A stretch of DNA of 64,000 bases from the NCBI GenBank assembly GCA_964658305.1, contig OZ210885.1, forward strand, positions 9,052,001-9,116,000, written 5' to 3'. The notes under the pieces are model-generated. The model saw only the letters and a list, made by a program, of their open reading frames with translations. It was not told the origin of the DNA and searched no databases. The stretch comes from Leptogorgia sarmentosa. Its lineage: Eukaryota. The translations under genes and the position numbers were made by a program. The first letter of the stretch is position 1, and the number at the start of each line of letters is the position of its first letter. Below, piece by piece: positions 4,420 through 63,683 of this stretch.

Positions 4420-4778
4420 TCAGACAATGTTGCAATTCCTCTTAAGTCTTCGACCTTTTGGTTGCAGTTGTTTTGAATGCGAGGATAACTTATTAAGACG
4501 AAGGAAGCAGACCCGACCTCCTTTCAGGCCAACACAAACCATTCCATTTGAGCCACATGCGATGGCTAAAACATCCCGGTCGAAATGAAACTCTTCAACA
4601 CACTCTCCATTTGGTAGGTTCCACAGTTTCAGCGACTTATCACCATAACCCGAGCACGACAACAGAAATTCTCCTTCAGGCGCTAATGCCAACGCTCTGA
4701 TACGTTCAGCATTTTGAATTGGAAATCTGTGGAGAACCTTTCCAGTTCTGAAGTTCTCAATCACCAAAGAATCACGAC
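4420..4778 (-). CDS. Coding exon 16 (terminal): WD40 repeats and stop
   Basis: IRALALAPEGEFLLSCSGYGDKSLKLWN; TGA at 4420-4422. Confidence 0.9.
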
Positions 4779-7700: not shown

Positions 7701-10700
7701 TTTAGTTATCATTTGTTGTTGTTCCTGTCGCAAAAATATGCAAATATGGATGACGATTCGAATCACGACGTTGACGTATTGAATGAATCCCAACATAATT
7801 TACCTTTGGAAGGTAAACTATTATTTTTTGCTCTCTTTTGTCCTCACGTCTCGAATGTGTTAAATTTATATCATTTCACTCCTTCTCGAGAAAAGCAACT
7901 GGGATTGTTGTTTTCGCACTTAGGGCAGCATACGCAACCATCTCGAAGCGCAAACAAATACTGTCTTTCGGGATTTATACTGTGAAGAGAGACTCCAGCT
8001 TCGGCTGTTGCTGTAGCCATATTTCGCTATTCGTAGATTAGCAGCACTGTGTTAGCAGTTTACTTATATCCCCCAATTTTTTTTCTTTATGCGCCCCCCC
8101 CCGGATGGACGCCATATTTTGAACCAAATGTAGCAGAGGCTTTTCATCCGCGTTTCCACTTTTTTCTTCATTTTCCTTCGTTTTCCGCCATGCCCTTACG
8201 ATCTAGCGCACATGCACTAATAATAAACAGTAATAAAAAGCCTCTGCGGAGGAGAGAGGACGAGGCATATGTCACACAAACCATCCTCGATTTTTCGCAT
8301 TTAAACGTATCTCTTTCCAAATTAATCGATATTCCGAGCAAGAAGTATCCCGTGTAACTACCAAAATAATGATGCTTTTATCAAATAGCGTAAATTCGTT
8401 CTAAAATTATCGAAGGAATGACAAAATTCGGCAAATATATATCGGCGTATCCGCTTTGCTGTGCGATAAACCGGACGTCGTTGAGCTACTCATTGAGTTC
8501 AAACCTGATAGGGCCGCGAATATTTAACAGTTATTCTGCGAACTCAAGTCGTATATGCTGTTTCGGCAATTTCAGAATCATTTCAGAATCTTATTAAAAT
8601 AAATATGCACAATATACCTTCCTTTAGAACTTACTTAAGATTTCGTTGAAATCCAGCATAAAATTAGGACAATATACTCATTTAAATTGTTAGCTACTGT
8701 ACACGTTCGTTATATTTATAGTTCACAAATCGCAATGATTGCGGCCGAAACGCCGGAAGTAAAATGTGCATGTCTAAAACATCAAAGGCTGCGACGTCAA
8801 ATTATCCATAAAGTTACACCGATGTACCCATTTATCAAGAAGCCGCCACTTTGCGACACCGTCGACGACAAAAGACACGGAGATGTTAAGACTCCGCTGG
8901 GTGGCTACGCCTACGCGGGCGGAGTGAAAAGGTTTCATTAAGTGCAAGTTTGACTTTGCTTGCTGTAATCTTAGAGGTCACTGGTATTAAATGGCCTCAA
9001 GTCTCGCCCGGTGACACTTTGCATCAGTGTAGCGATAAATAATTTAATAACACAACATCGTCACGACCCTTTATTACGCGTTTGGTGGAGTTATCGTGGG
9101 CGTTGCAGTTTACGACGACAATTCAATTTGTGCAGTAGCAGCGGCAACAAGTTCCCGCACAGAATGTTGAAGATTAAGGGCCGATAACATGGAGCATTTT
9201 CAACCCCGGGGTTTAAGTGAACCCTGTTGACAGGGGTTGAAAATGCCTGCACGTGAATGTTTTTTTTCTATAGTTTTCCAATGTTATTCACTGGAACCCT
9301 TCAGCTAATACTCGATGAATTACGCGATCACACCTTGTGCAATTGAGATTAGAAAATAAAATAATAACAATGAAATTATTTACCTAATATAGCCACAAGG
9401 TTGTCAGAATTGTTAATCCTTAAAACTTTCTCCACTTCCTCTGTATACCAAGAAGTGCTGCTTTCTTCCTCGGTGTTGTTCAAGTTCCACTTTGTGATTC
9501 CCCCTTTAGCTTCAGTAATAAATTCCTTCTTATGAGCACAAAAAAGAGAGTTGTGGACCACGCGAATTGTTTGGATTCTCCCCAAGAAGAGGTATTCGTA
9601 ACTATGCACGACTCCATTTTTATTTACCCGATCAATCTGTCAAAATTATCAAAAAACTGCTCAATATAACGTCCTTCCATAAAATATTTTCGCTCCAATT
9701 CACAAAACGTTATTCAGTTATAAATAGTTGTTATTATGTATTTCGAATTCGTGATTCCGATTCGGAAGCGTAATTTTCAGAATCGAAATTCTTGAATTTG
9801 TTTTACATAATATAGGTATTTTAAATGAATGAAGGCAAGGGGGTAAATCATGAAGAGGGGGGGGGAGGGGGGAGGGGATGAAACACGTGACCTACTTTTT
9901 CGGCTGAGGGGATGGATGTGTTATCCCCTCACTTTTTAACAGTAAATTCACGGACAATCTATCAAGTAAACTGTCCTTTATATGTGTAAACCTAAATGAA
10001 GTGTTGCGTTTCGTAATTACAATGCAAATGTAAATTTCATCATTCACGTTTATTAGAACAATTCTTGCTAAATTACTGCAATATGCGCGGAAAACGAGTG
10101 CAATTTTGCCAAACACGAGTGCAATTTTTCATGAATACTTTGCGAGCAAATGTAATTTACTAATAGCGTCAGTTGTATATCACACAGTTACACAGTGCGC
10201 AAAGTCAAACAAAAATCAAGACTAGGGATCCAAGGATAGTGCAAAGTTTCTAAGGCCCGTTTCATACGTCGAATTTTGGTCGCATCGAATGCAATTCAAA
10301 CAATGGATAATGAAGTTAGAAGTCATCTCATTATTCATTGTTTGAATTGCATTCGATGCGTCCAAAATTCCACGTTTAAAACGGGCCTAAGAGGACAATA
10401 AAATCATATTTTGAAAATAATCACTATTTTATTGTCAGAAAGCAACTGGCAGTCGCAGCAGCGCGCGTGTTAAAAGCAAATCAGATAAATCTCTGACCTC
10501 TGACCTTTATAAAATACATACACATTACACATCGTACAGATACTCCTGCGTCGTAATAAAATATCCAGTTTATTCACAGTATCAGGCCAACGTTAAATTT
10601 ACTTTTGTATGCCTGTATATGGTTTAGTTCTTTTAGTATCGAAAATTCTGTAAATCCCCGGTAGAAACAAACAACCGCGAGGCCGGAAGACGGGAAGAGT

Positions 10701-13700: not shown

Positions 13701-16700
13701 AAAACCTCGCCAATTTACGACAGCTTTAGGACTCGGCAAAGTTATTTTACTGTTCTGAAAATGTATTTTCTACAAAAAGCGCATGATGGTGGGAAAAAGA
13801 AGTTGTGGTGCCTTCGCATCTCGAAATTTGTTCGGTGTATGCCCTGACATAGAAGCTTCTTTTCCGTAGAAAATGTTATTTATCACGACCATTATTAACT
13901 AATGTATAATGAGAAATTTGTTTTAACCTGATCACTCTATTTCTAGCCCATGTTATTCGCAAATATATATTTTAATAAGAACTGCCTTCGCATAGTTTAA
14001 TTTTGAAGGTTTCACCGTCTTATACCAAAAAAAATCCAGCAAGAAAAAAACCCAACTCATTTGGTTGATTTCTTCCAGACATGGTGTGGACAATGGGGAT
14101 TTATTCCAAATTTGCCTCCCAATTTTCAAAATGAAGATTGGGACGAAGTTAATTTGCAATAATTCTAGAAACGCTTCATAATGTGTATGTGCATGTGCTG
14201 TTTTATATCATGAAATTTGAATTGCAGCTCAACCTACAACAAGTAACACGCCCAAAAATAGCATTTGAAAATCTCGTTCGGAAAATGATATACATACCTT
14301 TTTGCCAGAAGCAACTATGATATCATTCCAGCGGGGCACGAATTCTAACGCGGTAATGGGATCCGAACAAATGTTGTCATGTGACAATATTAACGTCGGC
14401 AAGTTTTCTTCAACATTCCAAAGCTTCACAGACCCACCGATAGACCCCGATGCAAAGCGACGTGAACGATCATGACCTCCTACCTCCCCTTTAACTTGAG
14501 AAATGGCATCCTCGTGTGCTGGGAATTTCAACTGCGAGTTATTGTTAAGATGGAACCATAACAGTTCTCCGTCATCACAACCAAGAAATGCATATTGTGA
14601 CCCAAGAGCAGTAATGCAAGTGACTTTAACATCTGGTTGACTCAAATTAATGCTGGTCTCGATATCATTAAGAATTCTTAGTTCGATCCTGTTTACCTCG
14701 TCAACAAAAACGAAACGGACATGATCACTTAATAAGCAGACAAAACGTATGGCGACTCCAGATTCGGTCTTTGCGAACTGAACTATTTTAGAACACTTTA
14801 TGTCGACCAGCGACAATGTTCCCGAACTGCTTCCAGACAGAGCAAATTTCCCATTTGATGTGATGTCAATTGCTGTAACAATCGAGTCGTCAGGGTGACC
14901 TGCATGAAGGAAGTAAAATTTTTATTTGAAGTATTCAAGTATGCGACGCTTCAGCGGTGTAGCCTGCCAATTATTGAAAAATATCGTTCAGACGACAATT
15001 AATCTTCATAGGTGCAGCAATAGAAATTTTCTTCAAATCCGGGTAGTAAAATGCATCGCTGATATCGAAAACGCAAAAATAAGTCATTCACTGTTGTAAA
15101 TAAAAGACTAGTATACTGGAATAAAGGCCGTTTTCCATTACAGTCGTTTTGCCCGCGCGGGCTGAGCTGAGGGTGAACGTAGTTCCACTTCTAAGCTTCT
15201 GCCCGTGCGGGCAAAGCGACTGCAATGGAAAACTGCCGTAAATCACACCAATTTCATCCGAAATTCAATCACTTTCACCTGATAAACGGTACGTACATTG
15301 TACGAACTTTAATTTGAATGGCCATAATATGTTTTTTATTGTTCCCAATCATTGCAGTTATACTAATTAATTTTGACACACTTTTATCCATTGTAGCGAT
15401 GGATTTTTGTTTCTTTACTTATTTTCAAATTTGAAAATTTGACTAGTTAGGCTCGATTTAGGCGTCTAATTTTCAAATTCAAACGATGAGGGAAGTAATC
15501 TCATCTCAATTTGAAAAAGGAAGTTGAAACGAAAGATCTACGAAAGAACGTAGTATAGATCTTTATGTATACACCCTGACCCCATTGACGTTGGCTGATT
15601 TCTACACGGCCGTGTGTCCGAAAATAATTTTACACGGTCGAATAATTTAGAAAACATATTAGAATGTTATTTAAAAAACATAAAAATTTAAGGAGATATA
15701 GGTATCCAAATAGCAACATATTTTGAAAGTTTTAACTACTATAGTTTCAGCGGTTTTACAGCACAACAGTTTTTGAAGTCGTTTTGATTGCGTTTCACTA
15801 AGTACCTTCCTTACTTCACTGCAATAGTCAGTAGTGAATGTACGGACAAACAATAACGTTATATATCAAAATATGTGTATTTTGTTCAAGAAACGCTTCG
15901 ACACGAGGAATAGCAGCGATTCATGCTGTTACCTTTTTTGGAAATAATTTCAGTATTATTTTTCCAACACATTTGCAGGTCAATTGTTACCCGAATTGTT
16001 TTGCATTCATTTTGCATTCCATCAAACTCATAACTGACGGGCGAATAGACCATTGATTTGCGACTGGATCCTGTATTCTTATAAGTATATAGGATGACCC
16101 AGAAGACACAATATAAGCGGCAACGATAAGTAACGTATGTAGTCAGCATAGTTAGTGATTATGCACTAAAAACGACATCTTTCATGTAAATTTTGTGGGC
16201 TTCAAGCGAATATAGAAGAAGACAGGAAACATAACTTGAATTGTCAGTGTTCGATTCGACTATTATTGCGCATTGGACTGGGTTGACTAATTTTTGGAAT
16301 CTCGTAGTTTTGGTATTCTTTCGCTACATGCAACACGACCTAAATAGCGGATACAGGTTTGTAGATACTCGTGACGAAACCGTTTTAATTGTATTTTCCG
16401 TAATCCTTTAATACATAAATTATAATCAGAACAGAAAATAGCCTGTAAAGCTAGCCAAGACAATTTCAGAGCTAACACGTAATCGAATTCAATATTTGAC
16501 TCATTCGCGAGTGAATGCAAAGTAAATTTTCGGGAAAAATATATTCTCATTTAAAACGGATATTTCACACATATAAATTATTGTGTGTATGAATATAGTA
16601 AAAAATCCTGTAGTCGCATCAAAGACTTAAAGTATTTAGAATTTTCAAATAGTCCTTGATTTACTCACCTGCATTATGGTCGATCCAACTATCAGTTGAA

Positions 16701-43700: not shown

Positions 43701-46700
43701 TCTTCACAGTAGACAGCCTGGAAATGACTTCACCGCAGTACGACTATACCTTTCAGCTTATTAAAACTTTAGAGAGTGTTTAAGGGGCGCGCCACGTACA
43801 TTATTAACTCCTATGCAAATCCGATTAAAGATATATTAAATAGTGCTTTTAATTCAAGGGTTACATAGCGGAGCCAAGAACCTCGAACAGCCAAGCGAAA
43901 CAAGGATTAAATACAGGGCGTGTCAAAAAAAATTTAGTGTAGGAAATATTCCTTAAAGTGTTACTGCAACGAATTTTTCGACCTCGTTTTTTTTGCCTTA
44001 AATAAATATTCAGGTCGAAAGATGAAATTTGGTGTATAGATGACTTTTGTACGTTCAGTGGAAGTAACTAAATTTCGCCTCCAAACTTCGATACCGGATG
44101 CGACAAAAACAGCCGCCATTTTGTCACCTTGTGACGTCACAAGTGTAACACGTTTAGCGAAGCTACTAGTAAATTGTATTGCGTTAGAGCTATACTCTGT
44201 GTTTCTCGCGCTTTTTTGGCCGGAAAAAAATATCTTTTGAAACAAAACTTGACCATAGGCATTTTAAGACAATATATTTTGCTCATGTCGAGTAACGAGT
44301 CTGGCGGAGACCCGCAATCGTGTGAAAGTTCAAGTGAAACTGCATGACCCGGTGTCGGATGGCTGGTTAATTCATGTCACATCGCACTGCTTTGCGTACG
44401 ACGATGAACCTATAGCAGAACCTGGGGAAACGAATTGTGTTCCAGAAGATCCAGATGGATTGTTGCCAGCAACTATTGAACAAAGAAGCGACGGTAGAAT
44501 AACTCTGGAACAGTGATAAGTGAAGGTTCAAGACTGTTTAGACTTTAGCCTAATTAAAATAGCCGACGTAGGCTAAATTTGAATGTATATTTTTTTGCTT
44601 TTATTTAATATTCATCTGTAATGATATATTGTTAATTTTGGTATCAATATATTGATATCAGTATAATTATTGATTCCACATTGCCGTCTCAATATCTCAG
44701 AACAAGTGTGTATGTAAAAGAGCCCAATTTTATAGGCCCTTTCTTTTGGGCTTCCTTGCCTTCTATTTATTAAATTTGTAAATACTTAAGCTGTGGCAGA
44801 ATAAATTGATTTGATTTGATAAGGCAACTAGTCACAATTCATAGCAAGTTAATACTTAGCGATTTTGCTAACTCTAGATTCATATCATAGTACGAATCTT
44901 CGAAGTGAAGGCACGAGGTCGCCGTAGCGTCAAAACCCGGGTTATGTTTACAGACAAATTTCACGCACTTATTCCGTCTCTGAGCATCTGTTTCTTCATT
45001 AGGGAATAGATGCATAGATACTCCTTTAGTTTTGCTATCATTGACGCAGCTAACTAAGTTAGGACCGCCAGCAACGCAGAGTTTTCCTCCGCGAGTAGCT
45101 TTACGTCTATTAGAAATATACGCCATGTTGACAATGTGTTACACTTGTGACGTCACACGGCATTAATATGGCGGTCGAAAATGTCGCACGGAAGTTGCCA
45201 AAAATCGCAACTTTGAAAGGCCATAAAATCCGTTTGAAAAGAGCAATTTTAATTCTGTTTGCGGTAAACATATTCGGAGAGTAAGTACTTTAAAATAAGC
45301 CAATAAAAAAGGGGTCGAAAAATTCGTTGCAGTAACACTTTAAACTAACGTGCGTTAACGAAATCTGTGAAAACGTTCAGTTAACCTATGCAGTTAACCT
45401 ATTCAGGTACATCTCGCACTGAGTTTATTTAAAAAATTTATCTTTCTTTTTTAGAGTAGGAAATGTGTTGCTGGAGAGCATTTTGAAAATAACTTGGGCA
45501 CAAAAACTAAGTTCTTCTCACGAATTTTGAGTCAATCGACTCAAAATATGGAGCATGTTGTACAAGTTATTAAAGTGTTGTGGAATTTGCTGCCCGCAGT
45601 GTTGTCACTGCGAGAACTGGATTTTGCGCTGCTTCCTGCGTGATTACCCATTAATTTAATGCATAATTGGATATTCCATTAATTTTCAATGCGAATTCCA
45701 AGGCCTTAACTACACGAATAAATTGCGTTAAATCCAGATTTCGGACATCGTGCGTTCGCCTCAGCGAGTGCGTAAGTTACAAACCTCAACGAATGTGCAT
45801 AAGTTACAAACCCATGGACAACCCAGTGGCCTCCAAGACAAGTTACGGGTAAAGTGATACCATTTTATTTAAACAACATGTAGCTAGGTACCTTTTAATA
45901 ATAATCTAAATAATATGGTAATGCTTTAACCTTAAGCCCATTTTCCACTCCATTATTTCGCCACAGCCGGCGAAAAAAAATGACAAGGATATGATGTTTT
46001 ATATTCATTTGCCACTGAAGAAATTTGTTCCACTTCTGTAGTTGTTGAAAATGTTCACTGTTGGCGCGAAAGAACGAGGAATTACTGAGATTTGTCGGTG
46101 GCAAAATTATTCGCCGGCGGCGGCCAAATACGCGAGTGGAAAACGGGCTTTACGCGAGCTTGTCCAGGAAGAATAAAAATAAGGCTTGTTTGTGGAAATT
46201 CGTTTCGAACACAAAAAATTCGAATGCATACATACTGTGTTCTTTTTAATCCAATCTTGTGCTTCACGGATAACACTGAAAGGTTTTGCTCCACCAAGAA
46301 CTTTTACTAAGATGTTAATCAGTGCTAAACAGTCAGGAGTTTCACCAACATCAAGCCATATAACTTGACGTGAAACTGAAACTTCCCATGCGACAGCCAG
46401 AGCTAAGATGGTCTTACCCAGACCCCCCATACCACGGATACCAACGACGTCACCGCTGCGACTTCCCACCACACCGACTTTACTATTTCCCTCCGCAAGC
46501 AACTTCAATATCTCGTTCACTTCTGATGGTCTTCTCACCATGTCACGAGGTAGACTGCGTAAACCATACCAGCCTAAGGTAGGAAATAAACGAGTTATGC
46601 TGGAGTACAATTGAACTCAAAAAATGTATAATAAATGCATGGAGATCATTCATTCAAAATATATCTCTTCACAAGTTTTTAAACAGTTCAACATGACTTG

Positions 46701-49700
46701 ATATACACATGCACGAAACGAACACCAAAACTACAAAATAAAACGTTGTCCTGTATTTGACATCGATTTTGGTAAAATATATCTTTCATGGTGAATAGTA
46801 CAAGAAATGTCTTAACTTTTGTTTTTCATTTCATAAACATGACTCATTCTGATACCTCAAGGATGGAAATTACAATAATACCTCTAATGCCTTTGATGGA
46901 TGGAAATTGCTGAAAACATAAGGGTACACTAGAACACAACGCATAGTACAATTGCGCTCTCTCTGTTCCATCAGTTCTCATAATTTGTATATTTGAACTC
47001 TGAATTCGAGATACATGACAATAAAAATATACGAATTCGGTATTTTCACATAAATGGGAAAATGAAACTTAAATATCTGTCATTGTCATTTAAGCACTCT
47101 CGTTGCAGTTGAGCTGGGTTGGCTCTTCACCAGCTTTTTTATTTGGTTGAGCACTGATACCGCGCAGTTCTTTTTTTCGCTTCACAGGAGGGGGAGAGTG
47201 TGTTTGGAAAATTATTCGGAGAAACATCGGATTCGCGCGAAATTTGCGATGTTTTCATATCGTATTTCTTTTGCCATTTACTCAATCCAGCATATAATTG
47301 GCGACAAACGAGAAGCTGGGTGTTCGAATCCAGAATTGGAACCAAATTTTTAATGAATTGCCTGACAGATCCAGATACTCAAAAGGTTTATTTTGCTGCA
47401 TAACATGTTTTGCATAAATACAGTTTAACTAATTTTACAGCCATAAAAACTGTAGAGTCGATGCTACATTAAGTCGCTGGTTCAGTGATAAACAATAAAT
47501 CCTTTAATAAGTAAAAATACAACTCATACAATATAAACTTTAAATATAAACAACCGCCATATTGTTCTCGTCTCTATAAAAAAAAAATGTGTTCGCACTT
47601 TTTGGCGATTACGTCACTGTCAATAATGTCCCGTATTTATCTTAAATCGTTCGCACATTTCCCCCTCCCGGAATCCCTAAGGATCCGTAATATGATCTAG
47701 TCTAGTTAACGGTCCCGAATTCCAACGGTGACAGACGTCCGATAGCGCGACGATAAACTTTACCCCCCTCCTTAACATCGACAACACGGACCATCTTATC
47801 TTTACCAGGATACACATCTTCAACCTTCCCCAACTTCCAATTTCGCCTTGCCACACCAGGGTCAATCACCAACACCACGTCACCTTTCTTAACGTTCCTT
47901 TGTTCCTCGTGCCACTTCGAGCGAGAACCAAGAGTCGTCAGATACTCCCGCATCCAACGCTGCCAGGTCTGCCGAATCAACTCTTGTACCCGTCTCCATC
48001 GTTTTTTCGGGTTAAACTGAGTGTAATCTACGCTTTCTGGGGCCAAATCTCCTCCCATTTGTCCGATGAGAAAGTGGTTGGGTGTCAGAACAGGCTCATC
48101 GTTCGGATCCCCACTTACACGAGTCAAGGGTCTAGAGTTGATTAAGCTTTCGACACCAATAATGGTAGTTTCTAACTCTTCATCATTGACTTCTGCATCT
48201 CCTAAGATTGCTTTAATTGCCCGTTTGGCTGTTTTAATCATTCGCTCAAACACTCCACCAAAATGGGGAGACGCTGGTGGATTCCAGTGCCAATTGACTC
48301 CTTTATTGGACGTAAGCGATTCCACTTTTGCTTTATCAATTTGATCCACAAGCGCTCGCAGTTCCCTGTTCCCGCCAACGAAATTAGTTCCGTTGTCGCT
48401 AACCATGTCCCGTGGCCAACCTCGTCGTGCCGCCATTCGTGTAAGGGCTTGCAGGAATCCATCTGATTCTAAGGACCAGACCATCTCAAGATGACAACAA
48501 TGTGTCTGTAAACAGAGGAACAAACACAGGTACCGTTTGATTCGTGCTCTCCCACGTCCTTGTTTGGTGAAGAATGGACCTGCGAAATCCACAGAACAGT
48601 TAGTGAATGGTTTCATCGTCATTTCTAAACGTATCTTCGGCAAAGGTGCCATCTGTTGACTGGAAGGTTTCCCTCTGAACCGTCGTTTGCATTCCGCGCA
48701 CTCTTTTATGGTACGTTTTACCAATTCTCTGCCATTAACCACCATATAGCGTTCACGAAGATGATTCAACGTAAAATTCACTCCCATTTCGTGGCCTTCG
48801 CTTTCATGATGATACTTCACTATGAGTTGGGTCACTGGGTGTCGTTTTGGCAAGATGATAGGATATTTTACATTGTCCGTCAACTCTTCCGAATAACGAA
48901 GCCGGGTATTTGAACGCATCAGTCCGTTTTTCAGAACTGGGGAAAGATTCAGGATCGTACTCTGCTTAGGTAACGGTTTTCGGTTTGTCAGGGCGTCGAA
49001 TTCTTTACTGTAAGCCTCGATCTGCGCCTCTTTAATTATTTGCTCTTCGACCCGTTTTAACTCTTGTGGTGTTAACTGTCCGTATAATCGTTCGACTGCA
49101 CTTTCCTTCGATTTCCGACAGTTTTCAATGAATCGGTGAACCCACGCTCGGATGCGGACAAAAGAGTTTCCGATTTCCACTCTTGTTGTTAAAGGATTCC
49201 GATACCACTTCGAAAAATGCGTCGGGTTCAGTCACCACCCTTCCTTCTCCTCGCCCTCCTTTCTCTTGGTTGCCATAAAGGAAGCTGTGGAATTTCTACT
49301 CTCGGGTTTCACTTCATCATACGCTTCGGATGTTGGGGTTTCGAATTTCCTTTCTGGCCATTGTTCACGCGGTCCTTGTAGGAAGTTAGGTCCGCTCCAC
49401 CAACAATCGTTGTTGTTCAGCTCGGCGACCGTCATACCCCGGGTTCCGTAGTCGGCAGGATTGGACGCTGTGGGAACATGCCGCCACTGTTGAGGATTCG
49501 AATCTTGGTGTATCTCGCCGACGCGATGTGCGACGAATGGTTTGTAATTCCTGCTTTGGCCTCGAATCCAATATCCCACAGTCATGCTGTCTATCCAAAA
49601 GTTCACCGTTCGAAGTTGCAACTCCAGTGCTTTGCACACTTGTTTGCTCAGACGAAGGCTGATGACTGCACTCATTAATTCAAGGCGTGGTATGCTGATA

Positions 49701-52700
49701 GTTTTCAATGGCGCCAACCTTGTCTTCGATGCTATCAAGCGGGAACTGAATGAACCATCCAAGTACTCATACCGCGCGTAAACCGCGGCAGAGTAAGCCT
49801 TCTCTGAAGCGTCGGAGAATGCGTGAATTTCCATGGTCGTAACAGTCGGGGCATCTTTCAAACACCGAGGGATCTTGGTCTCGTGCAGCATAACTAATTC
49901 TCCAAACCACTGTCTCCAAGCATTCTGAAGCTCGTCCGGAAGCGGTTCGTCCCAGCTCAAAGCTTGCACCCAGGCTTGTTGCATCAACAGCTTGGCACGA
50001 ACAACAAATGGTGCTAAAAACCCCATTGGGTCGAAAATGGTTGCTGTGCTCCGAAGCACATTTCTCTTCGTATATCGGTAGTCCTCGGAAGGTGGAGTGT
50101 AATGGAAGAGGAACTGATCATCGAGTGCCGTCCATGAAACCCCCAAGGTCTTAGTCACAGGCAGCTCATTCTTTTCTAGGTTGATCTCAGACGCTCGATC
50201 TCTCTCCGGAATATCTTCCAACACCTCCCGACGGTTGGAGATCCACTTTCGAACGTGGAAGTTTGCCTTGTCCCCAAGATCGGTTAACTGCTGGCGCATA
50301 TCCCTCGCTTTCGATATGGTCTCGACCGATGGCATTAGATCATCCATATAACAGTTCTTTCGTACAGCTGCCGCCGCTAATGGGTATTCGTCTCGATGAT
50401 TTTCTGCGTGTTGTTGCCAGGTGTACTGGGCGCAAAAGGGGCAGTAACATCCACCAAATATGAACCGAAGGAATTCATAAACTTCCGACTCTTTGGTCGA
50501 ATCCAGATTCCGCCATAGGAATCGATGCAGAGGTCTGTCTTCGGGACGCAGCACCAGCTGATGGTACATTTGACTAATGTCCCCTGCTAAAGCAACAGGT
50601 TCTTTTCGAAATTTGATAAGAATGTCGGTAATATCACTTTGCAGTTTCGGTCCCGTCAACGCTTCCGTATTAAGGCTTTTTCCTTCACACGTTGCTGATC
50701 CGTCGAACACGATTCTCACTTTGGTGGTTTCCTTATCTGGGCGAACCACTGGAAAATGAGGAAGCAACCACTCGCATTCTGGTTTTGGCTCGTGAGGAGG
50801 TACTTTACGGATGTAGTTCTTCGCCAAGTACTCGTTGATCACGCGTTGATAGGCAGCTGCTACTTCGGGATCTTTGGCTAATTTTCTCTCGGTCGATCTC
50901 AGTCGTTTCTTTGCCAATTCCGCGTTGTTCGGTAAACTAGGTCTTTGCTTCTTCCACGGAACTGCCACCTCATAATAACCATCCTTAAACGTCATGGACT
51001 CGCTGACCTTTTACCACGCCAGTTTTTCGTTAGGCGACATCTCAGCGGTACTCGAGTTAACAGGAGTGATATCAATACTCTCTAAATCCCAAAACCGCTT
51101 CAACATATCGTTCAAACTATGGTCTTCATCCTGTTGGCTTCCGACTGCTATACTCTCCTGACTTGTTCTGTAGGAATGATGAAAGGCGGTATGGTGCTGC
51201 TCCATCCGTGCTGTCTCCTGCACTTTCCCAACGGCCGTCCACCCCAATGGACAGAGTCTAGCTGAAGGTTGATCCGATTTTCCTGGTATTTCTTTCATGG
51301 AATACATGAGCTCGTGGTGATCCGCCCCTAAGAGAATGTCTATCGACCTTCCTGGTGCTAATCTGGGGAAGTGAATCTTGGCCAGGTGTTCCCAGTTGTG
51401 CTTCATTTTTATCCAGTTGACTGGCTTCATTCCTCCACAAATCTTCTTTGAAGTCTGTGCTCTTATCTCTGTGTCCACTCGACCATCCATACTCTCGAGT
51501 CCTATCTGGAATGTGGACGACATAAAACTAACGGTTTCGTCATTTGCAACTTTAACTTCGATCTTTGTTTTCGAACCACTCAAACCAAGAGCCTCAACGA
51601 CATCCTCATTTACGTAGGTCGTGTCGCTGCCTTCATCCAGAAGACAGTTTACGTGAATCTTCTTGTCACCGTTCTTCAAGATTACTGGTACTGTCTTCAA
51701 TGCAATGAATTTCGTATCTTGCCCTTGTGTTGCTCCATAGGACTTTGACTGTCGATCCCCCTCCGTATCATAACCGCTCCCGTTGTCTTCCTTATCACCG
51801 GCCTTGCTCTTTTCCTCCTTAGTCTCCGTCCTTGGTAAGGAAGATCTGTCTCGATGCAACAAATAATGATGACTCTCCCTGCAACCTCCGATGTTGCAGC
51901 TTTTGCTTCTCGTACATGTATTTCCCAAATGGTCGTCACCCAAACATCTATAACACAATCCAAATTTCTTTGCCAGACGCCATTTCTCATCCGCCGCCTT
52001 CGCTTTAAATGCCGAGCACCTCCAAATTGGATGAGTCTCTCCACACACTATACACTTCTTATTCCTCTTGTCGCCATCGTCAACCTGCTTGCCATGATAT
52101 GACCGTCCTCCTCTCGAATCATGTCCAGTAAATTTATCTTGACGAAGCCTCGGAAATCCATGTTTGATTTCAGCAGCTTGGACTTGATATTCCGCTTCCT
52201 GGCCAATCCAGTCTTTGAGAGTTTCCATAGATTCGTGTCGCAGGTGTTCTCGTAGCCAGCGATAATATTGTGACAACAGTCGCTCTGGTATTTTTTCTAA
52301 AATGATCGTGTACAATGTTCCTGCATCGAGGTCCGTTTGACGTCCGTTTTCTTTAAGACAGATAACCGCCCGTTCTAACACGTCTGCAAATGTCTCTAGG
52401 TCTTTTGCATTCCCTTCTTGCAATGGTTTAAGCTTTTTTAGTTCCTCTAAATGGCTTTGCACCTGTCGCCGACTTCCGCCGTATTTCCTTGCTAATCGAG
52501 CTCTTGCAGCATCATAGGCCTCCTTGGAATAACCCAGACCTTTGATGGTTTCAGCCGCTTCTCCCTCAAACATGATTCCAACCGAAGCATCTTGAATTGT
52601 GCCGTTAATGGTGCTTGGTCAACACAACTTGTGAAAGCTGCATCCCACTGCCGATATTTCATTTTGTCCCCAGTAAACACTGGAATGCGGATTCTTTCCA

Positions 52701-55700
52701 AGTGATGTGTTCCATCCCGGGAAATATTTCTATTCTGTAGGGTGGCACCCGAATCTGTTGCTATGGGTAGTGTGTTAGATGAGGTAGGGTCCACGTTTGG
52801 TAAGTTTACATGCAATCCTGGTGGTGAATTTCCTGACAACCGTGGAAGAAGACTGGGACTGATTGGGTATAGGTGAGGGTTATGCAATTCTGGTGGCGGG
52901 ACATTCGAAGAATCTGCTGGGGGGTTTACTGATTCCAGTGGGGAACCCACGCCATGTTGGATAGACTCACCACTAACGTTTCCGGGTACTACAGGATTTT
53001 CTAGACCATTATCAACTACACTGCTCGATGGGTTATTGTCATTCTCCGGGGAATTTCCAGAGTTATTTTCAGGTAATTCATTATTGGATGGACTAACCTC
53101 TTCGCTGTTATCCTCGTCTTCTTCCACAATTTCTTGAGCCACGTGATTTCCTTGTGCACTTTCTAGGTCCACCGCTGCTGGTGTGCTTTTGACACTGTTC
53201 ATCAACACTTGTTTCTTAGCAAGCGATGCTAAGAGCTGCCTAGCTACCACAGTTTCACCTTCCACCTGTTGCTCTATTTTGTCCGCTTCGTCCATTGTCT
53301 TTGCTGCATTGACACTATCATCCATTTTTCGAAATGCGGTCTCGAGATCATCCAAAATCTCCAATACCACTTGTTGTTGTTCGTCGATTCGTTGTAGTAA
53401 CTCATAAACGTGATGCCGATTATGCTCAATGTCCTCTGGTACCGAGAGCAAACCAACCAGTTGCGTTAGCAAACGTGTCAGTAACGATTTAGCGCTTCTT
53501 TTACTCTTTTTTGTATCTACAATAATAAGTTTCACGTCCCTTTGCGAATCTTTCGTGTTTTGCACTTCCGTTGTCATTTCTTCGTCGCTCATTTTTAACA
53601 CAATACAATTCCCTGTACTTCGAAACGATACTAAATGTACATACCAATTTTCCAATCTTATATATGGCTAATATCCTTGCGCCGCCGATAAATGCGTCCT
53701 TAGTAGCAAGTTCGAATGACTGTTCTCGATAAAATAATACAACACAATTCCGTCCGAACTGTGCTCGAATATATCCGTATTTCGTTTCTAGATCCGGCTC
53801 GAAGGACCAAAATGTAGAGTCGATGCTACATTAAGTCGCTGGTTCAGTGATAAACAATAAATCCTTTAATAAGTAAAAATACAACTCATACAATATAAAC
53901 TTTAAATATAAACAACCGCCATATTGTTCTCGTCTCTATCAAAAAAAAATGTGTTCGCACTTTTTGGCGATTACGTCACTGTCAATAATGTCCCGTATTT
54001 ATCTTAAATCGTTCGCACAAAAACAATACCTGGTTTCTCTGCATAATCTGAATGCTCTGTTCCAAGAATTTTATGAAGAGATTCGATTTCATCTGTGTTC
54101 CGTTCAATTTTCTCATTAAGCTCCTTTGTATTATGTTGAAGTTTTTCTTCAACAACCTCTTCAATTTTGCAAAACAGTCTTGACTTTAAATTGTCAAGTT
54201 CTTCCACCACTTCATCCATCTGGAAAGATAAAAGTGACATGTCACATAAATAAGTGATATATCTTTACAACATGAAGTATACAGCTGCAGTGTGTTATAG
54301 GGATTTCGGGCACTGTAAGTAAGTAAGCATTAGTATGTAAGCATGCATTTTTCAGTGCCGTACGGTATGTGAACAAGAGTATATGAATATGCCCCCCCCC
54401 CGTCCCAATTATCGCTATTGCTACGCCACTGGCATTTTTAGAGTTTTTTTCCTCTGTTGTCAATTAGCCTTTTTTTCTGCTTCAAGCTCTGTCAAAAACT
54501 ATAAAATGCATGTACCTCACGGTGAGGACGACATATTGAATGCTTGGTCGACATAGAAGTAAAGTCGAATACCAGCTAGAATTAGGTATTGTAATTTAAA
54601 TGCTGCGAGCAGAACTGGAATCCCAATTGGCTGCATCTTTCGCAGTCGTCTCTTGGTTAGTTGAGTGGCCGTCATGCCATCAATCGCACTAAACGGTCCA
54701 CGCACTTACGGTTTACAGGCGTACTCGATCAAAAGTAAACGGCTGCGTGGTTTCTATGCGTATTCGGTCAAAACTAAAACGCCTTCTGGGCGTTATTGAT
54801 CAGAACTAAAGGGCAGTGGAGCTTTCTAGACGAAATTCTCATTTCTGTCAACTACGTAGGTATAGGCAAAACAAAATGACTGCTTAGATATGCACTGATG
54901 GAGGTCGAAATTGGGCTTTCCAGTGTCGTGAATTTAAAATTGTTTACCAATGGCGTGTACGTAGCCATACTCCATTCCCTTCGGAAAATGCGCCAGTACA
55001 GTTGGCGGAAACCGCAACTTCTCCTCGAGGACAAACGCTTGGCAAGCGTCTTCTTTCACATTTAAAGAACAATTCCAACTATTTGGAATTTTGTATAATT
55101 TTAGCCGTTTATTGCATTTCAAGACGAAATACAATATATTTTTAAGAGTAAGCATTCGATTCGTGGTCTTCTGCGGTGTTTAATGGTGCCTGAGTTAAGG
55201 ATCACTTAAAAACACCTAAAGGTATTTTGAACGTGCTATTACTAAATATTTTTACGTGGTTATGTATACGTTTTAAAATGGGCTAAAAAACATTCCATTT
55301 TTTTATCACGCAATAACGAGCACCGTGCATACAATCAATTACAACTCCTAAATACCTTTGGCAAAAAAACAACATTTACGAGCTAACCTGTGGAAATAGC
55401 TTCATCATTTTTCATGTCCCGGAAGGATACAAGTTCCCGAAAAGGGCTCAACTTTTCTGTGACACCCGGGTAAAGCAAAATATGGTTTGCTTGTTGAACG
55501 GGTCCATATAATACTAATTTAGCGATTGCTAGGGGGAATATTAGATTTTTCTCAAACCTTTTTGTCTGCTTCAAACTGCCAGGTTTCACCACTTCGGCGA
55601 AGTTCGTCAAGTAATTTTAAGTAACGACCATCAACAAAAACGTCCGAAACTAAGAACGAAAAAGTATATTATTAAATCAAACAAATAATACAATAGCACA

Positions 55701-56496
55701 GGTACCGTATTTGCAGTTATAAGGAATTCCCAGAGTTAGTACTGTTTGGTATGAGAAATTTCCGGTATGGGTATTCGGGAAAATTATACTGATATTATCA
55801 CTTCACAATAACGAACAAGAGCAGGAAGGATAATCTCACTACCTAAACGATAAAACTAAACCTACGCTGGCCACATGTGCTGTGATTTAAACTGATACCT
55901 TTATTCTTCCATTCCTGTAGATCATCACACGCCTGTTTTTCAAGAACAGCTGATAACTTAATGTTTTTCATCAAGAATTCCATGTCTTGAATTGCACCAT
56001 TGAACATGGCATTGGTCCAATTGGAAAAGTTACAATGAGCCCACTCATTTCTCACTTTTGACCTTACATTCTTTGCGTACACTGAGGCACCAGATGTTAT
56101 GAATGGATCTGCTTCACACATGATAGTCAGTAAAGCAGAAAGATCCATTGTATCGTCAAAACCTGTAAACTTTGCCATGAAGGGTTGAACGAACAACTTT
56201 GCCAAAGACAGAGCATCTTTCACCGCGTAGTCATATGCACGGGGAGATTTGTGTATATTATTACCGTTGATGTTTTTATATTGTAAGTAAAAGGTTGATG
56301 GCGGAAATGTTCTCTTATACTTTCCAGAAGTTTGTTTATCAATTTCAACAGGTGGTTTACATAAGTCTTGATACCAGCTCCGCAATTCTGCATCGACAAC
56401 TTTCCTCAATGTGGTAGTTACAACTTTGGTAAGGCAAATACCCGTTACAACCCATCTGGATTCTTCATCTGTTGTGTAACTGGCACCGTTTGCCAT
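4420..56496 (-). CDS. Spliced gene (16 coding exons, ~1725 aa): HEPN - coiled coil - NB-ARC (Apaf-1-like STAND ATPase) - WHD/HD2 - WD40 repeats
   Basis: Exons 55899-56496, 55558-55649, 54030-54219, 46236-46573, 43007-43643, 42315-42737, 39974-40219, 35091-35309, 27761-27970, 24822-25089, 22580-22812, 20207-20313, 16669-17071, 14298-14899, 9384-9636, 4420-4778. All joins are GT-AG and phase-compatible; total 5178 nt, divisible by 3. Motifs: RNEWAH, GMGGLGKT, LVVLDDVW, LITTR, GLPLAL, VHDLL, many GH...WD/WN repeats. Confidence 0.85.
5407..6181. mobile_element. Tc1/mariner-like foldback MITE
   Basis: About 315-bp near-perfect TIRs starting cagggtgtatcaaaaa; TA TSD. Decayed relatives at ~12140-12320 and 43914-45770. 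Confidence 0.88.
7208..7296. repeat. Short palindromic element
   Basis: ggttccggtttacgggtac / gtacccgtaaaccggaacc, 19-bp perfect arms. Confidence 0.7.
7386..8258. mobile_element. MITE with 9-bp TSD (MULE-like)
   Basis: TIR ctctctcctccgcagaggcttttt extending imperfectly for ~150 bp; TSD GACGAGGCA. The superfamily is inferred from TSD length only. Confidence 0.78.
9384..9636 (-). CDS. Coding exon 15: divergent WD40-like blades
   Basis: Acceptor ttttgacag|, donor TTAG|gtaaa; open frame containing GITKWNL; phase 0 to 1 fits both neighbours. Confidence 0.78.
10221..11464 (-). mobile_element. Helentron-associated (HINE/DINE-1-like) non-autonomous element, long copy
   Basis: Sub-terminal inverted repeat tagtgcaaagttt at both ends; terminal hairpin; short microsatellite; CTAGT end. 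Both ends are shared with 35419-35623. Confidence 0.65.
10254..10387. mobile_element. PIF/Harbinger-like palindromic MITE nested in the HINE
   Basis: ggcccgttt...aaacgggcc; TAA TSD; almost fully palindromic. Confidence 0.82.
12776..13096. mobile_element. hAT-like MITE
   Basis: cagtggcgtag / ctacgccaccg; 8-bp TSD ATTACCGA; G/C runs. Confidence 0.82.
14298..14899 (-). CDS. Coding exon 14: WD40 repeats
   Basis: GHPDDSIVTAIDITSNGKFALSGS...AHEDAIS...FASGSIGGSVKLWN; phase 1 to 0. Confidence 0.9.
15125..15238. mobile_element. PIF/Harbinger-like MITE
   Basis: aggccgttttccattacagtcg / cgactgcaatggaaaactgccg; TAA flanks. Confidence 0.72.
16669..17071 (-). CDS. Coding exon 13: WD40 repeats
   Basis: VWNLSDG...VRFSSDG...VFIWDW; phase 0 to 1. 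Confidence 0.88.
19195..19320. mobile_element. Two inverted remnants resembling Penelope-like element ends
   Basis: gaagggcctttgctcgaaacgt on minus (19227-19249) and gacgagggcccttttgctggaaacgtc on plus (19282-19308); third copy at 60291-60335. Confidence 0.5.
20207..20313 (-). CDS. Coding exon 12: WD40 blade (DLKWAKHVAVSADDRYVVSLSKDG...IK)
   Basis: Not in the ORF track. Acceptor taatag|, donor AAG|gtgta; 107 nt, phase 1 to 0; joins as IK|VWNL. Confidence 0.82.
20519..20612. repeat. 94-bp hairpin / mini-MITE
   Basis: 22-bp perfect inverted repeat aacaagcagcaaaagttctact. Confidence 0.7.
20958..21405. mobile_element. PIF/Harbinger-like MITE
   Basis: Perfect TIR agccggttttccacttgcgaattttg; TTA TSD. 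Confidence 0.85.
21776..21963. mobile_element. Small MITE
   Basis: Perfect TIR caggggccgcggaa; AAGTA on both flanks; internal gtgccc repeats. Confidence 0.78.
22580..22812 (-). CDS. Coding exon 11: WD40 repeats
   Basis: LTASLDGSIRVWN...VSASKDETFKVWN; phase 2 to 1. Confidence 0.9.
24034..24729. mobile_element. Non-autonomous element with terminal hairpin and offset inverted repeats
   Basis: Hairpin at 24039-24146; 24147-24169 is a 22/23 inverted match to 24707-24729. Confidence 0.65.
24822..25089 (-). CDS. Coding exon 10: WD40 repeats
   Basis: LVSGSHDGTIKIWD...YEGHSAGI; phase 1 to 2. Confidence 0.9.
27761..27970 (-). CDS. Coding exon 9: WD40 repeats
   Basis: DGQFIATVGYYDKTIKLW...LVGHTDWVRCV; phase 1-1. 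Confidence 0.9.
28100..28691. mobile_element. MITE with 8-bp TSD (hAT- or P-like)
   Basis: TIR cagtgtgacca; TSD CTGGCTTA; repeated ttttacya subterminal motifs. Confidence 0.82.
29551..29737 (+). repeat. Gypsy 5' LTR
   Basis: TGTTAC...CTACA; (TA)n tract; AATAAA at 29692-29697. Confidence 0.95.
29756..30217 (+). CDS. gag: Gypsy gag, N-terminal part (frameshifted at A-run 30206-30210)
   Basis: Capsid-like RRQQPTETLDEYL...IRDAFIAGL. Removing one A gives LLEHKTLDLKTMFDQAR, continuous with the next ORF. Confidence 0.9.
   Translation: MDRVLRPERLDIDPNDNSAAKEWLHWERTFANFLSVLPQEDLNKLSVLANFVSPSIFQYIEDCREYDEAIQTLQALFVKPRNEIFARHVLATRRQQPTETLDEYLQALKTLSKDCNFKNVTANQYCEESIRDAFIAGLQSNLIRQRLLEHKNP
30228..33293 (+). 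CDS. pol: Gypsy gag C-terminus and pol (2 Zn knuckles, protease, RT, RNase H, integrase)
   Basis: CFFCGNSKHPRSKC, CLKCQKKGHFAKVC, LIDTGS, LPFG...YLDN, ETDAS, HHCC, VDFKGP/SDRG/QVEK. Confidence 0.95.
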   Translation: MFDQARALESAMRSSESYTLPPQPINAAVPPSSQACSPSPTELPDSVGTLAAVASEGPSCFFCGNSKHPRSKCPAREAICLKCQKKGHFAKVCRGKPVQPKDKVSAAAWSPTLATVPSPTSLSKSLASVDINGLKVKALIDTGSTESFIHPSLVEKAALIVHPSSSTVSMATSLSSAKISGTCTVDLSYQERRYENLHLSVLPGLCADLILGLDFQTRHESVVFKYGGSEPPLSVCSFSTLNIDPPQPFANLMPECHPIATKSRRYSQDDSEFIDKEVTRLLAEGIIEPSHSPWRAQVVVTKDDNHKKRLAIDYSQTINRFTILDAFPLPNISEMVNKIAQYRVFSTIDLRSAYHQVPLKDEDKPYTAFEARGNLYQFTRLPFGVTNGVACFQREMVKFVEENHLKAVFPYLDNITICGKDQKDHDENLKEFLEAAKLKNICYNDEKSVFSTRRLPLLGYVIEEGNICPDPERLRPLRDLPIPHDSKSLNRCMGLFSYYSQWIPEYSDRIKPITSCKSFPLSQEAIQAFQNLKKMVEEALVGAIDESVPFEVETDASEVALAATLNQNGKPVAFFSRTLQGSELKHASVEKEAQAIIEAVRHWRHFLTGRYFTLKTDQKSVAYMFDQRHKGKIKNDKIMRWRLELSCYSFDIIYRPGKENIPPDTLSRATCSAATDEDSLYKLHVSLCHPGITRLHHFVRTKNLPYSLDDIKRVISRCSVCCECKPQYYKPERVPLIKATQPFERINVDFKGPLPSCNGNRYFLNVIDEYSRFPFVFPCPDVSTSTVIKCLTSLFSLFGMPAYVHSDRGASFMSSELQSFLAEKGVATSRTTSYNPQGNGQVEKYNGVVWKGITMSLKSKNLPIKYWQEVLPDVLHSIRSLLCTATNETPHERLFGFSRRSSSGHSIPTWLATPGPVLLKRHVRQSKTEPLVEEVELLQANPHYAHVRYLDGRETTVATKHLAPKGHEGSPQASKETALPLPEIPPPTTTETEPQPPVASDVPQPLRRSERVRRPVDRLNL
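33386..33572 (+). repeat. Gypsy 3' LTR
   Basis: Direct repeat of 29551-29737, preceded by the PPT. Confidence 0.95.
34182..34695. mobile_element. Older hAT-like MITE
   Basis: cagtggcgtaa / ttacgccgctg; no clear TSD. Confidence 0.5.
35091..35309 (-). CDS. Coding exon 8: WD40 repeats
   Basis: LQGHSVAVTCLAVSQSGTILASGSSDRSAILW; phase 1-1. Confidence 0.9.
35419..35623 (-). mobile_element. Helentron-associated element, 205-bp short copy
   Basis: Same two ends as 10221-11464 with the interior deleted; (tgac/tgactaca)n microsatellite. Confidence 0.65.
37286..39695. mobile_element. Internally deleted Kolobok-like DNA transposon (copy A), carrying a nested MITE
   Basis: Same TIRs and internal sequence as copy B; TTAA on the left only. 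Frameshifted THAP remnant (38717-38950, ...LKEDAVPTI at 38497-38772) plus a further exon-like piece at 38185-38424. No DDE core seen. Confidence 0.8.
39103..39641. mobile_element. hAT-like MITE nested in Kolobok copy A
   Basis: TIR caagggcgtcaatcc; 8-bp TSD AGTACTTT. Copy B shows the empty site with a single agtacttt. Confidence 0.88.
39974..40219 (-). CDS. Coding exon 7: end of HD2 (GRLL) and first WD40 blade
   Basis: PQLL|GRLL junction as in Apaf-1-like proteins; phase 1-1. Confidence 0.88.
42315..42737 (-). CDS. Coding exon 6: MHD-like motif and Apaf-1-like helical domain 2
   Basis: YLVHDLLLDFA, DYYFKFLPYHI, LFFDLNWLQQKV; phase 1-1. Confidence 0.92.
43007..43643 (-). CDS. Coding exon 5: NB-ARC Walker B, sensor 1, GLPL, winged helix
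   Basis: LVVLDDVW, LLITTR, CKGLPLALSLVG, FLDFGIFPED; canonical splice sites. Confidence 0.93.
43957..45339. mobile_element. Internally deleted Kolobok-like DNA transposon (copy B)
   Basis: TIR agtgttactgcaacgaattttt; TTAA on both sides; AG...CT termini. THAP-like remnant on minus (CVAGGPNLVSC...MHLFP...HF, 44839-45126) and a second ORF remnant on plus (from ~44285). Confidence 0.8.
45935..46149. mobile_element. PIF/Harbinger-like MITE
   Basis: agcccattttccactc / gagtggaaaacgggct; TTA TSD. Confidence 0.75.
46236..46573 (-). CDS. Coding exon 4: NB-ARC P-loop (Walker A GMGGLGKT)
   Basis: VVGIRGMGGLGKTILA...VIWLDVG; acceptor ccttag|, donor ACA|gtatg. Confidence 0.93.
47451..47657 (-). repeat. 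BEL/Pao 3' LTR
   Basis: Adjacent to the purine tract gggagggggaaa on the minus strand. Confidence 0.95.
47702..53655 (-). pseudogene. BEL/Pao gag-pol polyprotein broken by one frameshift and two nonsense codons
   Basis: Four ORF pieces: LERIRIPVFTGD, three Cys/His knuckles, LLDEGS, YMDD, FSDAS, VDFAGP/SDNGTNF/GVFER. One-base loss near 52563-52565; TAA at 51011-51013; TGA at 49232-49234. Confidence 0.92.
53792..53809 (-). promoter_or_regulatory. Primer binding site complementary to tRNA-Tyr 3' end
   Basis: Minus-strand TGGTCCTTCGAGCCGGAT matches the 3' end of eukaryotic tRNA-Tyr (...CCGGCTCGAAGGACCA), 3 nt from the LTR. Confidence 0.88.
53813..54019 (-). repeat. BEL/Pao 5' LTR
   Basis: Followed on the minus strand by the PBS; ATTAAA (minus) at 53865-53870. 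Confidence 0.95.
54030..54219 (-). CDS. Coding exon 3: predicted coiled coil (MDEVVEELDNLKSRL...)
   Basis: Acceptor ctttccag|, donor CCAG|gtattg; E/K/L-rich heptad-like sequence; phase 0 to 1. Confidence 0.8.
55558..55649 (-). CDS. Coding exon 2: linker (VSDVFVDGRYLKLLDELRRSGETWQFEADKK)
   Basis: Not in the ORF track. Acceptor ttcgttcttag|, donor AAG|gtttga. 92 nt, open, converts phase 1 to phase 0, exactly bridging exons 1 and 3. Confidence 0.7.
55899..56496 (-). CDS. Coding exon 1: DZIP3/hRUL138-like HEPN domain
   Basis: ATG at 56496, 11 nt after a tttgtag acceptor (so a 5'UTR exon lies upstream). Contains MDLSALL and VRNEWAH (R-x4-H). Donor AAAG|gtatc, phase 1. Confidence 0.8.
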
Positions 56497-56640
56497 TATT
56501 CAGGGATCTACAAATAAAATATACGTGAATTAAATATACGCAATTTAAAAAGACTTTCAGCTGCAATCAATGAACTTCATAACATTTTTATGCACAGCAT
56601 ATTTTAAATATGCAGTTAACATCAAAATACGTGGCACTAA

Positions 56641-63600: not shown

Positions 63601-63683
63601 ATCATGTAATGTAGCACTGGAACTGCCATAGGCTATTTTCTTATCCATGGTGATCGACGACTGTGCTTATCACAGGAAACTTA

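Follow-up and report, generated by a model that had tools for sequence, protein, structure and literature searches.

Prokaryotic Avs proteins are STAND-nuclease defence proteins that combine sensor repeats with an oligomerising STAND core and an N-terminal nuclease effector. Bacterial HEPN-STAND fusions also exist (PMC3710099; this and the other sources are cited here for the parts of their text that were accessible). Among animals, HEPN-NACHT proteins number 17-83 per anthozoan, octocorals included (PMC8260672). A domain table for five stony corals (PMC10236652, Additional file 17) holds 180 WD40 rows, about 112 of which are, by hand count, DZIP3-HEPN-NACHT-WD40 proteins, while 5 are NB-ARC-WD40 proteins, every one headed by a death-fold domain; the InterPro-based labels of that study would likely miss a head of the type described below. 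CXorf38-type HEPN domains, for which a link to apoptosis or defence has been predicted, have been reported on NACHT and DEATH proteins in cnidarians and cephalochordates (PMC3710099), and Apaf-1 paralogues are known with CARD-pair, Death, DED or TIR heads (PMC2246300).

The window analysed here, a stretch of 64,000 nucleotides from Leptogorgia sarmentosa, contains a gene whose product resembles the coral DZIP3-like HEPN-NACHT-WD40 proteins (PMC10236652, PMC8260672) in being anthozoan and in having a predicted N-terminal HEPN domain, a central STAND ATPase and C-terminal WD40 repeats. Unlike in those proteins, the ATPase is an NB-ARC with an APAF1_C domain and the HEPN domain is CXorf38/Swt1-like. 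The chassis is the same as in DED- or Death-headed Apaf-1-like paralogues of anthozoans (XP_032223290 from Nematostella, XP_028408746 from Dendronephthya and XP_046844012 from Xenia). It also follows the NB-ARC-HD1-WHD-HD2-WD40 order of the vertebrate Apaf-1 apoptosome, but has no CARD and devotes about 900 of its 1713 aa to the WD40 region, compared with 1248 aa for the entire human protein. Whereas the published swaps on Apaf-1 paralogues involve protein-interaction adaptors (CARD pairs, Death, DED, TIR; PMC2246300), the head in the window is a predicted enzyme. It shares the R-N-x3-H motif with the CXorf38 branch of Swt1-like HEPN domains (DUF4559), a branch predicted to be active (PMC3710099), but differs from it in scoring under the Pfam cut-off and in being without a dsRBD, and no zinc-ribbon insert is recognised in it. 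With Avs and bacterial HEPN-STAND proteins, the product has in common the sensor repeats, the STAND core and an N-terminal, here predicted, nuclease; unlike Avs, however, the gene is eukaryotic, multi-exon and, according to our trees, recently assembled from animal parts, and we read the likeness as a convergent layout, not as membership. The protein would thus work like the known HEPN-STAND receptors while lying outside both the DZIP3-NACHT group and Apaf-1 proper.

Neither the HEPN-STAND-WD40 layout nor the swapping of death-fold domains on Apaf-1-like proteins is new; what appears to be new is a CXorf38/Swt1-like HEPN on an NB-ARC-APAF1_C-WD40 chassis. No HEPN on such a chassis was found in the literature searched, which covered sources other than subscription journals, nor in the accessible parts of PMC10236652, PMC8260672, PMC3710099, PMC2246300, PMC10959488, PMC8195603 and PMC8662601, and the accessible text of PMC3710099 likewise contains no NB-ARC-WD40 fusion of a CXorf38-type HEPN. 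The original prediction, made from the DNA letters, had overstated the novelty of the architecture, since stony corals have HEPN-STAND-WD40 proteins in abundance, in the DZIP3-HEPN-NACHT-WD40 form (PMC10236652, Additional file 17).

The gene is a single minus-strand unit of 16 exons in AT-rich eukaryotic DNA, running from an ATG at 56496 to a stop codon at 4420 and encoding 1713 aa in the order HEPN, coiled coil, NB-ARC, APAF1 helical domain and WD40 repeats (Table 1). All 15 introns are GT-AG, the phases close, and the sole stop codon is the terminal one. A homologue, P0001 (1709 aa, on a 5604-nt contig), aligns with the whole gene model, the exon-2 peptide included, and in tblastn its segments fall in order on 15 of the 16 exons. 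The continuous 16-exon frame proposed earlier is borne out by these introns, phases and the alignment over the whole length, and the two small exons that had been placed outside the open-reading-frame track (55649-55558 and 20313-20207) are real: both are needed by the frame and have good splice sites, exon 2 is matched by P0001 in tblastn (58%, E 8.5e-6), and exon 12, the one exon without a tblastn match, aligns to P0001 in a three-way alignment. Exon 10 has a second acceptor at 25089, in frame and adding 12 aa to give a 1725-aa product, but the homologues prefer the acceptor at 25053. For exon 9, an acceptor at the start of the open reading frame (28016) was ruled out because its phase is wrong; the exon begins at 27970.

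Table 1 Exons of the gene, its putative HEPN motif and the retrotransposons in its introns, in window coordinates
Feature	Position	Strand	Content
Exon 1	55899..56496	-	ATG and entire predicted HEPN domain (aa 1-199), CXorf38/Swt1-like
HEPN R-phi-x3-H motif, R149-N150-E-W-A-H154	56035..56052	-	At end of predicted helix 137-153
Exon 2 (92 nt)	55558..55649	-	Helical linker after HEPN
Exon 3	54030..54219	-	Predicted coiled coil (heptad pattern); ends in phase-1 intron
Exon 4	46236..46573	-	NB-ARC start; Walker A GMGGLGKT at 46410-46433
Exon 5	43007..43643	-	Walker B, sensor-1 TTR, GLPL motif, HD1, WHD
Exon 6	42315..42737	-	VHD (MHD-type) motif and APAF-1 helical domain (HD2)
Exon 7	39974..40219	-	End of HD2, start of WD40 region
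Exon 8	35091..35309	-	WD40
Exon 9	27761..27970	-	WD40
Exon 10	24822..25053	-	WD40; alternative in-frame acceptor 25089
Exon 11	22580..22812	-	WD40
Exon 12 (107 nt)	20207..20313	-	WD40
Exon 13	16669..17071	-	WD40
Exon 14	14298..14899	-	WD40
Exon 15	9384..9636	-	Divergent propeller segment; no Pfam match; 33% to P0001
Exon 16	4420..4778	-	Final WD40 repeats and stop codon
BEL/Pao LTR retrotransposon, intron 3	47451..54019	-	Pfam Peptidase_A17, DUF1759, DUF5641; outside protein
Ty3/Gypsy LTR retrotransposon, intron 8	29551..33572	+	Identical 187-bp LTRs, 5-bp target-site duplication; outside protein

Exon 5 matches Pfam NB-ARC (PF00931; E 3.5e-22), with human Apaf-1 as its best PDB match (E 6.7e-15), exon 6 matches APAF1_C (PF17908; E 2.4e-11), and six of the seven WD-region open reading frames scanned have WD40 matches in Pfam, while a home-made WD40 profile detects only 9 repeats in the gene model. 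The Walker A, Walker B, sensor-1, GLPL (GxP) and VHD (MHD-type) motifs are intact (at aa 341, 412, 437, 497 and 630, respectively), and the heptad pattern of the coiled coil covers residues 229-285. No CARD, Death or DED family appears in the Pfam scan of exons 1 and 3. These matches, together with the negative result for exons 1 and 3, agree with the Apaf-1-type chassis without CARD or death domain that had been predicted. A NACHT-type receptor was rejected as a candidate identity because exons 4 and 5 match NB-ARC instead of NACHT, and a CARD-bearing Apaf-1 because exons 1 and 3 are without a CARD and the head is HEPN-like.

In searches with the core of P0001, anthozoan proteins named Apaf-1-like come first, followed by metagenome TIR-NB-ARC-WD40 proteins and then mostly by plant NLRs. 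The TIR-NB-ARC-WD40 proteins reach 184 bits against the core, compared with 100 bits for the human Apaf-1 1-591 construct, and because they score above human Apaf-1, the likeness of the chassis to the vertebrate protein does not establish orthology. The NB-ARC-WHD of the Dendronephthya DED proteins is 64-65% identical to that of the window protein, with similar overall length and WD40 region, and the anthozoan chassis relatives with a complete N-terminus bear either DED (Dendronephthya, Nematostella, P0304) or Death (Xenia) domains; the HEPN-like head is found on only 2 of the 49 chassis relatives tested, P0001 and P0011. By these sequence comparisons, the chassis is that of an Apaf-1-like anthozoan paralogue whose kin carry DED or Death, rather than of a CARD-bearing Apaf-1 that has lost its CARD, and the original reading is corrected on this point. 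As a side observation, the top core matches after the anthozoan group (P0312-P0324) are mostly metagenome TIR-NB-ARC-WD40 proteins that rank above human Apaf-1, and these kin make a separate tree worthwhile for the origin of the anthozoan Apaf-1-like clade.

The match of exon 1 to HEPN_Swt1 (PF18731; E 0.022) lies under the Pfam cut-off. Among 109 close homologues of the head, however, matches at E<=0.1 are found to HEPN_Swt1 in 80 and to DUF4559 (CXorf38) in 30, and within a set of 78 mostly more distant members, six score above the curated DUF4559 (PF15112) cut-off and one above that of HEPN_Swt1, over the same domain. At the same threshold of E<=0.1, none of the 109 close homologues matches HEPN_DZIP3 (PF18738) on the head domain, and a DZIP3-type identity was rejected on this count; the HEPN_DZIP3 matches of P0015 and P0150 fall on a second, separate domain. 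The DZIP3-like HEPN head of the original prediction is therefore retained as a HEPN superfamily domain with an intact motif and loses its DZIP3 type, the links of the family being to DUF4559/CXorf38 and HEPN_Swt1; likewise, among the profiles it had named for the spliced protein, NB-ARC, APAF1 helical and WD40 find matches and HEPN_DZIP3 does not. R149 is kept in 107, N150 in 108, H154 in all 109 and the upstream D118 in 108 of the 109 close homologues, and in a broad set of 163 rows the R-phi-x3-H motif is kept in 124 of the 139 that cover it (24 do not reach it). The HEPN consensus is R-phi-x3-H, where phi is N, D or H (PMC3710099), and the same consensus is given in bioRxiv 10.64898/2026.05.28.728550, where an upstream Asp is indicated for CXorf38 as well. 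The AlphaFold model of the head is all-helical (pLDDT 96.3), with a helix at 137-153, a loop and a helix at 162-177, such that RNEWAH (149-154) falls at the helix end and the subsequent loop, matching the description of HEPN domains in PMC3710099. In the ESM Atlas, the named neighbours of residues 1-200 of the homologue P0002 all belong to HEPN-type families (HEPN_DZIP3 at 11-38%, DUF4559 at 11-37% and HEPN_Swt1 at 39%).

If the N-terminal domain were no HEPN but a helical bundle of unrelated origin whose R-x4-H is fortuitous, this would fit the Foldseek searches with two head models, which gave no match at E<=0.001, and the PDB sequence searches with head alignments, which gave nothing relevant. 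It would also fit the VIA structure search, in which the HEPN entries (Z 5.8-6.9, among them the Swt1 C-terminal domain at Z 6.9 with 113 aligned residues and rmsd 3.2, 5yep at Z 6.6 and 2hsb at Z 6.3, with Roquin and Csm6 also listed) tie with unrelated helical bundles, an acyl-CoA dehydrogenase coming first at Z 8.5. We nevertheless regard such a bundle as highly improbable, since family members exceed two curated HEPN cut-offs over the same domain, the Atlas neighbours are HEPN families, and the position and conservation of the motif fit. The head very probably belongs to the HEPN superfamily and appears to be part of a largely unannotated CXorf38/Swt1-like family with a conserved R-N-x3-H motif; its catalytic activity is a prediction, to which we give a lower likelihood than to HEPN membership. 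A homodimer prediction for exon 1 (score 0.01, mark 0.32, alignment not used) speaks neither for nor against pairing.

A HEPN head need not cleave RNA: it might bind or sense RNA or act as a decoy for pathogen effectors, with the receptor signalling through a partner, for example in a hetero-oligomer with its DED-bearing paralogue. HEPN-NLRs are left open as RNA sensors or RNases in PMC8662601, the eukaryotic Swt1 HEPN is given as inactive in PMC3710099, and the head also occurs on proteins that have another effector (kinase-KEN in P0250, HEPN_DZIP3 in P0015). Yet R, N, H and the upstream D hardly vary although identity within the head family is only ~30%, a pattern that suits catalysis better than binding, and the CXorf38 branch is given as active in PMC3710099; we therefore consider a purely sensing or decoy head unlikely.

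The joining of head and chassis was followed in homologues and in sequencing runs. P0001 is 129/199 identical to the gene model in the head, 191/340 in the NB-ARC-WHD and 309/533 in the distal WD40 region, and a second homologue, P0011 (1205 aa, on a 4084-nt contig), has the same fusion; both are continuous from the head into WD40, and the fusion is kept at 55-75% identity. We infer that their contigs are transcripts, and the two may be close paralogues. With exon 1 as the query, a search of longer proteins returned 27 matches, two of them with WD40. Octocorals (Dendronephthya, Paramuricea, Xenia) supply the closest named relatives of the head as well as of the chassis. Four sequencing runs (X1-X4) were mapped over 39800-56800. 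X1-X3 cover the introns continuously, as DNA-like runs do, whereas X4 has its depth mainly on exons, with almost none over the retrotransposon in intron 3; we read X4 as RNA solely from this exon-centred depth and its spliced joins, its run type being off record. At junctions 1/2 and 7/8, the loose ends in X4 match the exon on the other side (0, 1 and 0 mismatches), and an X4 joint at 46571-54030 corresponds to junction 3/4, in register, with two differing letters in between. X4 differs from the window at many positions and so may represent a different allele or a closely related paralogue. Junction 2/3 (55558/54219) is absent from the cut tables of the mapped runs and rests on P0001, P0011 and P0028. 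The HEPN exon is thus joined to the NB-ARC exons as had been proposed, with 55899/55649 and 54030/46573 joined in X4 and P0001 running through uninterrupted, while 55558/54219, which is not among the X4 cuts, is backed by the homologues.

Head and chassis could nonetheless act in trans as mostly separate products, a HEPN-coiled-coil protein and an NB-ARC-WD40 protein from an internal start, with the fusion as a minor form. Two 304-aa proteins, P0028 and P0297, carry the closest head (70% identical) and the linker and stop just past it, at the position of intron 3; RefSeq isoforms of the DED/Death relatives start within the NB-ARC exon (P0421, P0429), and an ATG stands at the start of exon 3. 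Against this, X4 joins exons 1/2 and 3/4, and P0001 and P0011 are unbroken from head to WD40, and the short forms, which may be a stand-alone HEPN-coiled-coil product, may equally be intron-retaining contigs. We judge separate products decidedly improbable.

The BEL/Pao element begins 10 nt past the exon-3 donor, has LTRs that are 99% alike and a 5-bp target-site duplication, and its coding region is split over several open reading frames in the window. In X1-X3, empty-site joints skip the element and the depth over it is lower than over the flanking exons; the insertion therefore looks polymorphic. The Ty3/Gypsy element lies antisense to the host gene and has a 1036-aa open frame with protease, RT, RNase H and integrase. 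The Ty3/Gypsy insertion is very recent and the BEL/Pao element is young. Such young retrotransposons in introns 3 and 8 would also suit a decaying by-product of exon shuffling, in which the fusion is transcribed without a selected function or the BEL/Pao insertion has knocked out this haplotype. X4 has the 3/4 join but almost no depth over BEL/Pao, and so the splicing seen is not tied to the insertion haplotype, and CARD-less Apaf-1-like proteins have been hypothesised to be under relaxed constraint, likely without oligomerisation (PMC10959488). However, the 16-exon frame is open, every ATPase and HEPN motif is intact, the same fusion is kept in P0001 and P0011 at 55-75% identity, and the GT donor of exon 3 is undamaged by the insertion; a functionless or disabled gene appears improbable to us.

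The history of the two halves was traced in separate trees. In a careful core tree (12 rows, 506 columns), all three cores that bear a HEPN head group together in a single clade (100/99), which lies within the DED and Death rows. A quick core tree of 47 rows on a shorter core places P0001 outside the pair of window and P0011, without strong support, and sets the whole chassis group far from the NB-ARC-TPR proteins that bear the same head. Both core trees were built without P0310, which has no Walker A, and without any bilaterian Apaf-1 sequence, and the 'bact' row labels in the 47-row tree stand for TIR_2 heads and metagenome sources, not for taxonomy. In the tree of 32 heads, the window head lies inside an octocoral clade (100/100) of mostly TPR-type proteins, in which the WD40-type heads group together (91/88). 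The nearest heads by relatedness hence sit on NB-ARC-TPR proteins, whereas the nearest chassis relatives bear tandem DED or Death, and similarity to the DED relatives starts at exon 4, after the phase-1 intron. From these relationships, we favour a single effector swap in octocorals, from DED-DED to HEPN-linker, with the phase-1 intron that precedes exon 4 as the likely module-swap point. The head-plus-linker exons would have come from the HEPN-NB-ARC-TPR expansion of octocorals and been grafted once, onto an Apaf-1-like gene that carried DED. In Dendronephthya, the DED chassis gene P0302 and two genes with the same HEPN head, P0017 and P0019, are on contigs of identical size (1,230,288) and may lie on one scaffold; if so, donor and acceptor of such a swap are near each other.

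A profile search with the head returned 533 representatives at E<=0.001, the named ones among them belonging to anemones, soft corals, mussels, one clam and amphioxus. Scanning 42 longer representatives gave nSTAND3 in 16 (most with ankyrins), NB-ARC in 7, NACHT in 3, and NPHP3_N and Roc-COR in 2 each; AIG1, kinase-KEN, PARP14-type RRM, AAA_16 and ankyrin-only proteins occur once each, two are beta-helix/MYND proteins without an NB-ARC match, and five have no match at all. None of these 42 carries WD40. The head module is found on at least seven chassis in marine invertebrates: NB-ARC-WD40, NB-ARC-TPR, NACHT, nSTAND3-ankyrin, Roc-COR, AIG1 and kinase-KEN. This HEPN module is thus widely shuffled, while its combination with WD40 is rare and lineage-restricted, and the recurrence of the head on other oligomerising NTPases is as expected of a proximity-activated effector. 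In the kinase-KEN case (P0250, Xenia XP_046854686), the same head on an RNase L/Ire1-like protein places two HEPN-family domains in one chain. In X1-X3, the summed contig depth is 17,000-28,000 over exon 1 (55676-56242) and about 1,000-2,400 over exon 5, figures that do not give a copy number; they hint that HEPN exons of near-identical sequence are numerous in this genome.

As the most likely mechanism, we propose with moderate confidence that the gene encodes a spliced Apaf-1-like STAND receptor, with a HEPN head in place of tandem DED, that works as a danger-triggered RNase through ligand-driven oligomerisation; every mechanistic step beyond the sequence is borrowed from the biochemistry of Apaf-1 and HEPN proteins. 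In the resting state, the WD40 region would keep the NB-ARC closed and ADP-bound, as in known families. A cytosolic ligand would bind the WD40 propellers and release the NB-ARC, nucleotide exchange would lead to ring assembly, and the coiled coil would pair the HEPN domains into a composite active site, such that RNA cleavage could bring about translation shutdown or cell death without caspases. The hypothesis in PMC10959488 that CARD-less Apaf-1-like proteins likely fail to oligomerise speaks against this mechanism. The broader notion of an animal 'RNase apoptosome', in which an Apaf-1-like wheel silences or kills the cell by cutting RNA directly without a caspase, and whose head is a HEPN module placed by exon shuffling on at least seven sensor chassis, we put forward only tentatively.

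Few coral immune genes are expanded as strongly as those for HEPN-headed NLR-like proteins, whose activity is treated as a prediction in the papers cited here. Here, nature has made the swap, with one chassis headed by DED or by HEPN depending on the soft coral, and this allows a direct test of whether an oligomerising Apaf-1-like scaffold switches on an RNase, as in bacterial STAND-nuclease defence. Since the head family lies mostly under Pfam cut-offs, the number of nuclease-armed receptors in marine invertebrates is likely underestimated by domain surveys.

Other features of the window include two copies of an element in introns 7 (37282-39105) and 4 (43953-45294), about 88% alike and with a weak THAP-domain match (E 0.007), which likely represent a decayed DNA transposon. 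Just upstream of the gene, on the plus strand, a weak zf-RVT match (56864-57283, E 0.006) probably marks where a LINE fragment has its 3' end, and the end of the window (63673-63999) is occupied by a short tandem repeat array (86-bp match, 96.5% identity).
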